Shown here piece by piece: positions 15,050 to 17,929 of a DNA stretch of 52,381 bases. The position numbers and the translations under genes were made by a program. Source of the DNA: Candidatus Nomurabacteria bacterium (lineage in GTDB: Bacteria > Patescibacteriota > Minisyncoccia > Phycocordibacterales > UBA5272); NCBI GenBank assembly GCA_029288775.1, contig JARIGQ010000003.1:1-52381 (forward strand), in the 5' to 3' direction. Numbering within the stretch: the stretch's first letter is position 1; each line of letters opens with the position of its first letter. The notes under the pieces were generated by a model, which made no database searches, was not told the DNA's origin, and saw nothing but the letters and a program-made list of their open reading frames with translations.

Positions 15050-17929
15050 ATGAGCACCTACGACTATCACGCAATCGAGGAATACTGGAAGAAAAAGTGG
15101 GATGAGCAGAAGTTGTATACAACAGATATACACAGTTCTCGCCCGAAGCTCTATCTTCTTGTGGAATTTCCTTACCCCTCCGGTGCAGGGCTGCATATGG
15201 GGCATATGCGAAGTTATACGGCTATGGACGTGATTGCACGCAAGAAGCGTCGAGAAGGCTATGAAGTACTTTTCCCTATCGGATATGACGCTTTTGGTCT
15301 TCCTGCAGAAAATTATGCAATTAAGACTGGTATTCATCCAAAAGTGACTACTCAAGAAAATATTGAAAATTTTCGCAAGCAAATGAAAGCGTGTGGTTTT
15401 TCCTTTGATTGGGAACGTGAAATTGATACTACTGATCCGGCATATTACAAGTGGACGCAGTGGATTTTCCTGAAGCTCTATGAAAAGGGGCTAGCGTACA
15501 AGCGAGAAATGCCTGTGAATTGGTGTCCAAAAGACAAATGCGTACTTGCCAATGAAGAAGTGGTAGATGGAGCTTGTGAGCGGTGTGGTACGCCGGTTGA
15601 AAAGAAAAATAAAAAGCAGTGGATGTTGGCAATTACCAAATATGCGGAACGCCTAGACAAAGATCTGGATGAAACCACTTATTTGGATAAGATAAAAATT
15701 CAGCAGCGTAATTGGATTGGACTTTCAACGGGAAGTGAACTTACGTTCACGCTTAAAGCTCAAAATGAAAGTATTCCTTTTGCTATCTTTACTACGCGGG
15801 CTGATACTATTTTTGGGTGTACCTATTGTGTACTTGCACCCGAGCACCCACTGGTGGGGCAATTGCTCGATAAGGGATTACTTACCAATAAAGAAGAAGT
15901 AGCTCGTTACAAGGAAGATGCCGCGCTTAAACTTGATATTGATCGCTCGGCAGAAGGGAAAGAAAAGACAGGTGTTCGTTTGGAAGGAGTGACGGCAATT
16001 AACCCAGCAACACAAGAAGAGGTTCCGGTATTTATTGCTGATTATGTGCTTCCACAATACGGAACCGGAGCAATTATGGCCGTTCCGGCCCATGATGAGC
16101 GCGACTACGCGTTTGCTATTCGTTACAATCTTCCAATGAGGGAGGTAACACGGCCATATGTAATTGATCATGTAAATGTTCCACGTGCTGATAAGCCAAC
16201 CAAAGTAAGACGCAATGTGCATGCAATTGTGCGTGACCCAAAGAATGGAACTTTTCTTATTATTCGGAATTCTATTCACAGGTGGGACACTATTGTTATA
16301 GGAGGAGTGGAAGAAGGAGAGGATGTTATAGAAGCAGCAAGACGTGAGCTTCGAGAAGAGACAGGCTATACAGATGTTGAATATGTGAAGACCCTCGGTG
16401 ATCCTGTTCAGGCAGGTTATTTTGCACCGCATAAGGATGAAAATCGTTTAGCAATTGCAAGCGCGGTATATTTTGAGTTAAAGAGTGACACAAGGGAGCC
16501 GATAGCGCTCGATGGTGAAAACGAAGGTAATGAAATTTTGTGGGTGACACCTGAAGAATTTGTTCCAGGAAAGATGATCAATTCGGAGCTTCCATATTGG
16601 CTTACGCGGCTAGCAAGCGATAAGCCGGTATTATTTACCCACGAAGGCATTCTTGTAAATTCAGGATCATTTGATGGGCTTTCTGGGGAAGAAGCAAAGA
16701 AGAAAATTACGGAAGCACTCGGTGGAAAGGTTGTTGTGAAGTCAAAGCTTCGCGATTGGGTGTTTGCTCGCCAGCGTTATTGGGGGGAACCAACTCCAAT
16801 TGTGTACGGTGAAGACGGCACCATGTATCCTGTGCATGAGAGTAATTTGCCCATTATTCTTCCTAATGTAGCTAAGTTCGAACCAACAGATAATGGTGAA
16901 TCACCTCTCTATCAGGTGCCTGAATGGGTAAACGTAAAAGGTTATATTGATGAGCAAGGATACTTCCATGAAGATGCTGCGAAAGAGACTGTATTTAAGC
17001 GAGAAACTGATACTATGCCGCAATGGGCAGGTTCTTCATGGTATTTCATGCGTTATATTGACCCCAAGAATGATCACGCGATTGGTGATCCTGCCCTTTT
17101 AGGAAAATGGCTTCCAGTGGATTGGTATAACGGTGGCATGGAACACACCACACTTCATCTTTTGTATTCCCGATTTTGGTATAAGTTCCTTTATGACCTT
17201 GGTATTGTGCCTACAAGCGAACCATACATGAAGCGTACTTCGCAAGGAATGATTTTGGGGGAAGGTGGAGTGAAGATGAGTAAGTCTTTAGGAAACGTTG
17301 TAAGTCCAGATGACATTATCAAAGAATTCGGTGCTGACGTGCTTCGGGTGTATGAAATGTTTATTGGTCCTTTTGATCAATCAGTGGCGTGGGATAGTAA
17401 GGCAATCGTCGGTGTAGAGCGATTCTTGGATAAGGTACAGAAGATATGTTCTAAAGTAACGGAAGATGCCGAATCGCTTTCAATTACTCACCAAACAATC
17501 AAGAAAGTGACCGAAGGTATTGATGGTATGTTGTTCAATACCTGTGTATCGCAGCTTATGATTTGCGCCAATGAGTATGAAAAGACCAATGAAGTAGCCA
17601 AAGCAGACTTTGAGAATTTTGTATGTCTCTTGGCTCCTTTTGCGCCGTTTATTGCAGAAGAGCTTTGGAAAGATCTAGGGCAGACTGTAAGTGTCCACCG
17701 GGCTCCATGGCCAGAGTTTGATGAGACAAAGCTTGTTGAATCTACGGTTACTATTGCTATTCAAATAGGTGGCAAACTTCGCGGAACCCTTGTACTTCCT
17801 CGAGATATGGCCGAAATGAACGTATTGGATGAGGCGAAAAAGACTGATACGTATCAGAAATATGTAGGGGAAGCGACCCCTAAAAAGGTCATTTTTGTGC
17901 CAAATAAGCTCATAAACATCGTAATTTGA
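15050..17929 (+). CDS. leuS: leucine--tRNA ligase carrying an inserted Nudix hydrolase domain
   Basis: Start moved to ATG 15050 ([17 protein letters not shown]). HMGHMRSY (HIGH) and VKMSKSLGN (KMSKS) are present. CP1 editing motifs TTRADTIFG and [16 protein letters not shown] are present. The Nudix box [23 protein letters not shown] lies at 16301-16369. Confidence 0.95.
   Translation: [959 protein letters not shown]

Follow-up and report, generated by a model that had tools for sequence, protein, structure and literature searches.

Aminoacyl-tRNA synthetases (aaRS) are among the most conserved proteins, and their accessory domains are usually ancient, lineage-fixed appendages. The leuS gene of a Candidatus Nomurabacteria bacterium, a Parcubacteria/Paceibacteria-like member of the candidate phyla radiation, raises the question of why a leucyl-tRNA synthetase (LeuRS) should carry a complete Nudix hydrolase domain, how this domain came to lie in the middle of the protein and what it might do there. 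The stretch of DNA analyzed, referred to here as the window, is 52,381 nucleotides long (contig JARIGQ010000003.1, assembly GCA_029288775.1). The Nudix domain was found to behave as an exchangeable cassette inside the CP1 editing domain, one that LeuRS alleles have swapped, acquired and lost, presumably through recombination.

A single long open reading frame (ORF), 14927-17929 on the plus strand, encodes the LeuRS. The likely start codon is the ATG at 15050, giving a protein of 959 residues. The protein scored 926.9 bits against the bacterial equivalog model TIGR00396 (leuS_bact, cutoff 548.4), the match falling into two stretches with the insert between them, and a phmmer comparison with the Thermus thermophilus LeuRS (1h3n) gave an E value of 1e-202. 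The AlphaFold 2 (AF2) model of the full-length protein had a mean predicted local distance difference test score (pLDDT) of 88.5, and a Foldseek search with this model ranked LeuRS-tRNA complexes best, the top match being 2bte with template modeling (TM) scores of 0.74 and 0.81. The features of the gene are listed below.

15050-17929, plus strand: leuS, bacterial-type leucyl-tRNA synthetase and host of the Nudix domain, 959 residues (TIGR00396, 1h3n, AF2 and Foldseek).
15194-15205, plus strand: HIGH signature in the form HMGH, residues 49-52 (from the translation; H49, G51 and H52 invariant).
15707-16156, plus strand: N-terminal part of the CP1 editing domain, residues 220-369 (Pfam PF13603, profile positions 1-142, E value 1.7e-54).
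15791-15808, plus strand: threonine-rich motif of the editing site, TTRADT, residues 248-253 (T248, T249, R250, D252 and T253 invariant).
16088-16105, plus strand: AHDERD of the editing site with the conserved aspartate, residues 347-352 (H348, D349, R351 and D352 invariant).
16157-16624, plus strand: Nudix cassette in a CP1 loop, residues 370-525 (missing from relatives of 793-830 residues; 207 bits with the family hidden Markov model (HMM)).
16208-16573, plus strand: Pfam NUDIX match, residues 387-508 (PF00293, E value 1.8e-16, 60.8 bits against a cutoff of 21.1).
16301-16369, plus strand: Nudix box of 23 residues, residues 418-440 (regular expression and translation; every position of GX5EX7REUXEEXGU matched).
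16418-16447, plus strand: subfamily motif YFAxHK[DN]ENR of 10 residues, residues 457-466, 3' of the box where the Nudix specificity loops lie.
16625-16717, plus strand: C-terminal part of the CP1 editing domain, residues 526-556 (PF13603 profile positions ~143-183, contiguous after in silico deletion of the insert).
17273-17287, plus strand: KMSKS loop, residues 742-746 (K742, M743, S744 and K745 invariant).
17471-17806, plus strand: anticodon-binding domain, residues 808-919 (PF08264, E value 2.3e-19).

The position of the insert was defined by two comparisons. In the alignment with T. thermophilus LeuRS, query residues 1-367 corresponded to Thermus residues 1-362 and query residues 529-738 to residues 377-580, so that ~161 query residues stand in place of ~14. 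The limits of the insert, residues ~370-525 (nucleotides 16157-16624), were set by the insert-free close relatives of 793-830 residues, and the junctions read TRP/YVIDH on the N-terminal side and ASDK/PVLF on the C-terminal side. The original prediction, which was made from the sequence of the window alone and proposed such an alignment to delimit the insertion, had placed the Nudix domain after the end of CP1. The match to the editing domain profile PF13603 indeed stopped ahead of the insert, at position 142 of 185. When residues 370-525 were deleted in silico, however, PF13603 matched contiguously over positions 1-183 of 185 with an E value of 9.6e-57. Consequently, the insert interrupts CP1 at profile position ~142 rather than following it, and the earlier placement has to be corrected.

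Read from the sequence, the architecture is a Rossmann fold that holds the CP1 editing domain, which in turn holds the Nudix domain, i.e., three levels of nesting. In a 2026 survey of domain insertions, every event recorded for the LeuRS editing domain PF13603 had it as the inserted module and none as the host (PMC13114784), whereas PF13603 hosts the Nudix domain in the window LeuRS.

The host itself appears to be intact. The HMGH, KMSKS, TTRADT, GTG and AHDERD motifs were all present and invariant in the alignment of 67 LeuRS homologues on which host motif conservation was scored. Judging from this conservation, the protein looks like a functional synthetase that would retain both leucylation and editing. 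The leucine-specific domain, which precedes KMSKS in the Thermus and E. coli enzymes, is absent ahead of this loop (window 17258-17290, residues 737-747) in the window LeuRS and throughout its clade; residues 580-637 of the T. thermophilus protein have no counterpart in it.

The insert is a complete Nudix domain. Alone, the excised segment matched PF00293 with an E value of 1.2e-17, and a six-frame scan of the window found the box at 16301-16369 to be the sole Nudix box present. AF2 modeling of residues 368-530 alone, using an alignment of 26 diverse inserts whose identity to the query insert extends down to 20%, gave a pLDDT of 95.6, a predicted TM score of 0.88 and the canonical order of strands and helices, with the box helix at insert residues 59-71; the same region had a pLDDT of 86-95 in the full-length model. 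All of the top Foldseek matches of the insert model were Nudix enzymes, the best being 2azw (TM scores of 0.69 and 0.76). The modeling thus shows an insert predicted to fold autonomously as a Nudix domain. Moreover, free-standing proteins of 160-200 residues matched the insert profile from end to end, N-terminal extension included (E values of 1e-37 to 1e-49), and the insert therefore equals a whole gene. Several elements of the original prediction were recovered independently: a complete domain whose box lies at the same coordinates and fits the consensus throughout, its detection by the PF00293 model well above the cutoff, its independent folding in AF2, and HIGH, KMSKS and editing motifs that are intact.

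Whether the domain is an enzyme was judged from its conservation. G418, E433, E436 and E437 were invariant across the 26 diverse inserts, while G419, E424, R432, G439, K462 and W498 were conserved in at least 90% of them. In a closer alignment of inserts, Y, F, A, H, K, E, N and R of the motif YFAxHK[DN]ENR were also invariant. A minority of the inserts has a variant box, with K for R or, in a few, without a strict match. The window insert differed from those of three relatives in GTDB (L001-L003) by a nonsynonymous divergence (dN) of 0.18-0.21 with saturated synonymous sites (proportional difference, pS, of 0.76-0.85), which shows that it is under strong purifying selection. Together with the invariant E433, E436 and E437, this selection suggests that the insert is an active Mg2+-dependent pyrophosphohydrolase. 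It could be argued instead that the fold is non-catalytic and serves a structural, tRNA-binding or ligand-sensing purpose, for example offsetting the missing leucine-specific domain, since the clade lacks that domain, variant boxes occur and non-enzymatic Nudix-fold proteins exist (PMC5389931). This explanation is very improbable; the insert-less alleles of the same clade likewise lack the leucine-specific domain, free-standing homologues of 160-200 residues exist, and the three glutamates of REUXEE and the glycines of the box hardly vary, if at all, even among cassettes that have diverged strongly.

The architecture is widespread. Of the 120 LeuRS homologues that matched best, 110 contained the Nudix subfamily. 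A search of GTDB, which used a single motif pattern (YFAxHK[DN]ENR), found it within LeuRS in at least 112 species representatives of Patescibacteria/Parcubacteria, an answer to the suggestion in the original prediction that related genomes be surveyed for the same insertion. In each of the 80 GTDB loci that were kept, the Nudix domain lay within a long LeuRS ORF and the box was intact. The names of the metagenome-assembled genomes (MAGs) fall in the Parcubacteria/Paceibacterota and include Giovannoni-, Nomura-, Vogel-, Wolfe-, Yanofsky-, Wildermuth-, Moran-, Uhr- and Kerfeldbacteria, although some third-party MAGs seem to carry default taxon labels. When 1.84 billion cluster representatives were searched exhaustively with the insert profile, there were 160 clusters at an E value of 1e-30 or lower and 1106 at 1e-10 or lower. 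Among the ~166 top representatives at 50% identity, 114 were LeuRS, 38 were free-standing, one was a fragment of prolyl-tRNA synthetase (ProRS) and 13 were other or unclassified proteins. The gene order DUF5671, LeuRS, Sigma70_r4/HARE-HTH, an unknown gene, YceG and RNase_T is common to the window and several relatives.

A patchy distribution in a conserved, essential gene and a phylogeny discordant with that of the host superficially recall inteins. An intein-like element that is spliced out of the mature protein, or else a chimeric assembly, is extremely improbable here. Identical junctions were found in over 100 independent assemblies and in 112 GTDB species, and chimeric assembly is therefore not the cause. 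An intein was rejected: the N-terminal junction has no Cys, Ser or Thr, the C-terminal junction has no His-Asn followed by Cys, Ser or Thr, and the fold is Nudix rather than Hint. Direct or inverted repeats at the ends of the cassette, which would point to a transposon-like element, were also sought, and only short matches of the kind expected by chance turned up.

The history of the cassette is not that of the synthetase. Over 5778 pairs of LeuRS, the identity of the core and the identity of the insert were uncorrelated (Pearson 0.09), and closely related synthetases can carry cassettes of low identity or none, as the following examples show.

P0026 and P0030: cores 98% identical, inserts 41% identical.
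P0056 compared with P0026 and with P0030: cores 98% identical, P0056 without an insert.
P0047 and P0052: cores 97% identical, inserts 22% identical.
P0010 and P0014: cores 94% identical, inserts 39% identical.
P0029 and P0058: cores 92% identical, insert present in the former and absent from the latter.

The query cassette is itself 76-82% identical to cassettes in LeuRS that have a core identity of 54-56% (P0059, P0070, P0077, P0062 and others), whereas LeuRS with 71-75% core identity to the query have cassettes that are only 22-36% identical. Synonymous sites are saturated in both the insert and the core, so that lateral transfer in the lineage of the query is inseparable from slower evolution. 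Recent replacement or loss was shown only for a trio of loci, L089, L090 and L091, whose DNA is mostly 95-100% identical over ~10 kb in which the gene order is the same. When L089 is compared with L090, nucleotide identity falls to 45-67% in the segment that encodes residues ~350-545, and in L091 most of this segment is missing. In these loci the proportional synonymous difference rises from 0.07-0.29 in the flanks to 0.75 in the insert. The simplest mechanism would be homologous recombination by way of the strongly conserved LeuRS sequences on either side. The insert-less LeuRS loci L091 and L098 had no adjacent free-standing Nudix gene.

A phage vector or a link to defense systems was also considered and rejected. 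The scan of viral contigs found no close relatives, only one generic Nudix match with 34% identity; there was no meaningful match among the PADLOC defense models, and only generic Nudix families were matched in PHROGs.

The cassette is not restricted to one position. A single Nudix HMM was run over the 120 best LeuRS homologues and four sites were found, given here in query numbering.

Site B, the site used in the window, residue ~369: 108 proteins.
Site C, residues ~640-648: 7 proteins.
Site A0, residues ~211-213: 6 proteins.
Site A, residues ~232-243: 5 proteins.

The number of Nudix copies per LeuRS ranges from one to three. At sites A0 and A, after residues ~211-243 and close to where the editing domain begins, the inserts of other LeuRS in the clade include Ham1/ITPase, HAD, alpha/beta (Ser) hydrolase or ASCH domains; homologues with such domains or with a second or third Nudix domain are P0032, P0044, P0045, P0048, P0054 and P0096. 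In P0048 a nucleotidyltransferase domain directly precedes the site-B Nudix domain. The alignment of L089, L090 and L091 has a second sharp drop in nucleotide identity, to 0.68, in columns 4701-4800 (LeuRS residues ~217-250), which corresponds to the beginning of the editing domain; large inserts are found at this place in other relatives.

Nor is LeuRS the only host. In L096 (2762-4693), a class II ProRS of the archaeal/eukaryal type holds the same subfamily (160 bits), embedded between the anticodon-binding domain and ProRS-C_1. The subfamily also occurs twice inside a Peptidase_M17 protein of the leucyl aminopeptidase family that has two GNAT domains (P0270, 1318 residues) and is fused to Peptidase_S51 in P0287 (385 residues). 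The free-standing genes were examined in seven loci. In two, the Nudix gene is located 2-3 bp upstream of LeuRS; in one each, it follows ArgRS by 12 bp, with an IleRS that has an embedded His_Phos_1 domain nearby, precedes ThrRS by 86 bp, and, in L096, lies one gene upstream from the ProRS-Nudix gene. Thus, in five of the seven loci the neighbor is LeuRS, ArgRS, ThrRS or ProRS.

In L081/L082 (7386-10889), a 1167-residue IleRS has a His_Phos_1 domain embedded between the two tRNA-synt_1 halves, and the surrounding genes encode further Nudix proteins, HAD, dUTPase, thymidylate kinase and NTPase_I-T.

The variety of sites and cargoes suggests a wider interpretation, which we put forward as a tentative one. 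The LeuRS of Patescibacteria may be a hot spot of intragenic accessory cassettes, with four surface sites and a strain-variable content of whole enzymatic domains, chiefly this Nudix subfamily, that is exchanged laterally between strains and lineages via the conserved flanks. The discrete Nudix types, well conserved but quickly swapped, might then be under balancing or arms-race selection acting at the synthetase or the tRNA, for instance through nucleotide-type toxins or signals, and not be part of routine metabolism.

What, then, would the embedded enzyme do? We favor, with a probability of roughly 40%, the reading that the tethered Nudix domain clears by-products of aminoacyl-adenylate chemistry of the diadenosine tetraphosphate (Ap4A) type. 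In this proposal, a functional LeuRS carries, in a surface loop of CP1, a member of a Nudix subfamily that is characterized by its box and by YFAxHK[DN]ENR and that occurs either as a free-standing protein, often beside aaRS genes, or embedded in an aaRS, overwhelmingly LeuRS. The domain would be tethered to the synthetase and take no part in how it aminoacylates or edits. The most likely substrates would be adenylate-derived dinucleoside polyphosphates, Ap4A or ApnN, and perhaps Np4-capped RNA ends. Synthetases make these dinucleotides as side products, and the tether could provide local clearance and recycling to ATP and AMP. A tethered module, rather than one integrated into editing or aminoacylation, is what the four insertion sites and the natural insert-less alleles point to. 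An Ap4A-type substrate is favored because the insert resembles Ap4A hydrolase and RppH and because the subfamily is repeatedly associated with five different aaRS. The coupled activity that the original prediction had raised as a plausible idea thereby gains some indirect support.

The resemblance takes several forms. The best characterized sequence match to the insert in the PDB was the lupin Ap4A hydrolase 1f3y, with E values of 2e-6 for the single sequence and 9e-11 for the profile, and the two have in common an N-terminal strand (Y/V)RRNV. The top NCBIfam matches were RppH models, and human Ap4A hydrolase ranked 26th in the Foldseek search. A conserved tyrosine downstream of the box marks ApnA hydrolases (PMC5389931). 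In the insert, the aromatic residues Y457 and F458 follow the box by 17-18 residues, and one of these two positions is aromatic in most inserts; either residue may correspond to the ApnA tyrosine.

Several observations weigh against this reading, 1) the lupin match covers mainly the N-terminal half and the box of the insert, 2) against the RppH equivalogs (PRK00714) the insert reached 26-29 bits, far below the cutoffs of 116-118, and no curated substrate-specific cutoff in NCBIfam was reached, 3) the closest match by both structure and profile is the uncharacterized Enterococcus faecalis protein 2AZW (profile E value of 1.4e-12), 4) the seven free-standing neighborhoods are a small sample, some of them possibly orthologous, and include one gene that adjoins Fpg/MutM and another that adjoins a second Nudix gene with no aaRS near, 5) the Ham1, HAD, alpha/beta-hydrolase, ASCH and nucleotidyltransferase inserts of the same LeuRS clade have no link to Ap4A, 6) the subfamily is also present in the M17 and S51 peptidases, 7) alleles without the insert occur in LeuRS backgrounds that are 98% identical, and LeuRS therefore does not need the Nudix domain and 8) LeuRS is not known to be a major producer of Ap4A, nor ArgRS to make any. 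The four sites, the other hosts and the other hydrolase inserts, taken together, point away from a mechanism specific to LeuRS.

Much of this evidence would also fit a close rival, a generic housecleaning of nucleotides such as 8-oxo-(d)GTP, ADP-ribose or NDP-X that is independent of LeuRS. Tiny genomes would nest small hydrolases in loops that tolerate insertions, within large and essential proteins that are expressed constitutively, and CP1 would be a favored landing pad. The other inserts of the LeuRS clade belong to classic housecleaning or small-hydrolase families, the IleRS with the embedded His_Phos_1 lies amid dUTPase, thymidylate kinase, NTPase_I-T and Nudix genes, and the Nudix domain itself is found within Peptidase_M17 together with GNAT and fused to Peptidase_S51. 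The free-standing copy that adjoins Fpg/MutM suggests a MutT-like role, and JGI names members of the family MutT, albeit as a generic label. Strain-level presence, absence and replacement are typical of accessory functions, and four insertion sites count against a role that depends on geometry. However, housecleaning leaves unexplained why 114 of ~166 representatives reside in LeuRS and why aaRS are the neighbors at five of seven free-standing loci. There was no MutT equivalog among the NCBIfam matches and no ADP-ribose pyrophosphatase equivalog model was reached; E. coli MutT (1mut) matched with a profile E value of 2e-7 over the box region only. We consider this explanation possible but would not prefer it to clearance of Ap4A-type products.

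The RppH matches, and an association that spans several aaRS whose common ligand is tRNA, raise a further alternative, in which the synthetase is a tRNA platform for a Nudix enzyme directed at RNA or tRNA ends. Such an enzyme might be an RppH-like 5'-pyrophosphohydrolase, remove NAD or Np4A caps, or clear a pyrophosphate or nucleotide adduct that a toxin has put on tRNA. RppH models head the NCBIfam list, the best matches by structure and profile include RppH and the mRNA-decapping effector AvrM14, a nucleotidyltransferase adjoins the Nudix domain in one LeuRS, and the rapid turnover of the cassette recalls conflict-related genes. The scores nevertheless fall far under the RppH cutoffs, neither a PADLOC model nor a close relative on viral contigs was matched, the 155-residue domain has no evident RNA-binding extension, and the peptidases that also carry the domain do not bind tRNA. 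On balance, an RNA-end function is unlikely.

Several other genes of the window were noted. A HIT-family protein of 127 residues (Hint/Fhit-type nucleotide hydrolase fold; PF01230, E value 7e-23) is encoded at 12305-12688 on the plus strand, ~2.4 kb upstream of leuS, and L098 has a HIT gene of equal length, likewise ~2.4 kb upstream, ahead of its insert-less LeuRS. The HIT gene was considered as a substitute for the missing cassette in L098 and was rejected because the window has both. The gene directly downstream (17926-19005, plus strand) overlaps the leuS stop codon and encodes a Sigma70 region-4 helix-turn-helix (HTH) together with a HARE-HTH; it was paired with leuS in all related loci examined. 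Three ORFs on the plus strand, 1248-2699, 6617-7738 and 19084-20619 (483, 373 and 511 residues), matched no Pfam family at an E value of 1e-4 or lower, and in relatives, too, the last of these follows the HTH gene. An SMC_N/RecF/RecN-type ATPase (36177-38417, plus strand) has only 746 residues, with a single SMC_N match over residues 3-729. A short class-1 release factor of 296 residues (45378-46268, plus strand) has the SPF and GGQ motifs, and its match to the PCRF profile is confined to the C-terminal half of that profile; a frameshifted prfB was rejected, there being no CTTTGAC site nearby.

The component parts, a bacterial LeuRS and a member of the Nudix superfamily, are known, and it is their architecture that appears to be undescribed. 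Full-text literature searches found no paper on a LeuRS-Nudix or aaRS-Nudix architecture, and a 2017 review of the Nudix clan makes no mention of tRNA or synthetases (PMC5389931). The original prediction, which knew of no description of the fusion, is therefore borne out for the literature searched and has to be qualified for the databases, where the fusion is common in Patescibacteria MAGs and one such protein is labeled "leucyl-tRNA synthetase/8-oxo-dGTP pyrophosphatase MutT" by JGI.

To a specialist, the cassette-like behavior, which the original prediction could not have seen, is probably the most surprising element, in that the Nudix module behaves as accessory genome content inside a housekeeping gene. 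The proofreading domain of an essential synthetase houses a further enzyme that is predicted to be active, with one domain nested in a second and that one in a third, and the module is widespread in a large radiation of uncultivated bacteria. The link between one Nudix subfamily and several aaRS makes it a testable question what clears Ap4A-type side products in bacteria that lack ApaH. In addition, the natural, tolerated insertion sites in LeuRS are of use for protein engineering, and the insert may affect the action of LeuRS-targeting inhibitors on these organisms.

The window LeuRS has the class Ia Rossmann core, HIGH, KMSKS, the CP1 domain with its threonine-rich region and aspartate, the anticodon-binding domain and the C-terminal domain of the bacterial enzymes of known structure (T. 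thermophilus 1H3N and 2BTE; E. coli 4AQ7 and 3ZGZ), and differs from them in having a 156-residue Nudix domain in place of a CP1 loop of ~14 residues (T. thermophilus 362-377). The insert shares the full box, the alpha/beta/alpha fold, the (Y/V)RRNV strand and an aromatic residue after the box with the lupin enzyme 1F3Y, E. coli RppH and E. faecalis 2AZW, the last of which aligns over the whole domain. However, it is only 16-26% identical to the RppH, Ap4A hydrolase and 2AZW group, has its own motif, YFAxHK[DN]ENR, and is embedded in an aaRS. By analogy only, the cassette resembles inteins and homing elements, which also occupy conserved, essential genes in a patchy, host-discordant pattern with clean presence and absence alleles; unlike them it has no Hint fold, splicing residues or endonuclease and stays in the mature protein.

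A parallel case of an essential class I synthetase with an extra enzymatic domain is IleRS with GNAT (ileS_w_GNAT), and the existence of an NCBIfam model for it (NF040702) means that aaRS with accessory catalytic domains are already recognized. There the host, the accessory fold and the position are all different, the window type being located in CP1, and exchange of cassettes at the strain level is not known for such proteins. In animals, LysRS makes Ap4A from the aminoacyl-adenylate and ATP, and the Nudix enzyme NUDT2 degrades it. The functional logic proposed for the LeuRS-Nudix fusion would be the same as that of the LysRS-Ap4A-NUDT2 axis, with the difference that LysRS, the producer, and NUDT2 are two separate proteins, whereas the fusion would unite producer and hydrolase in one polypeptide.

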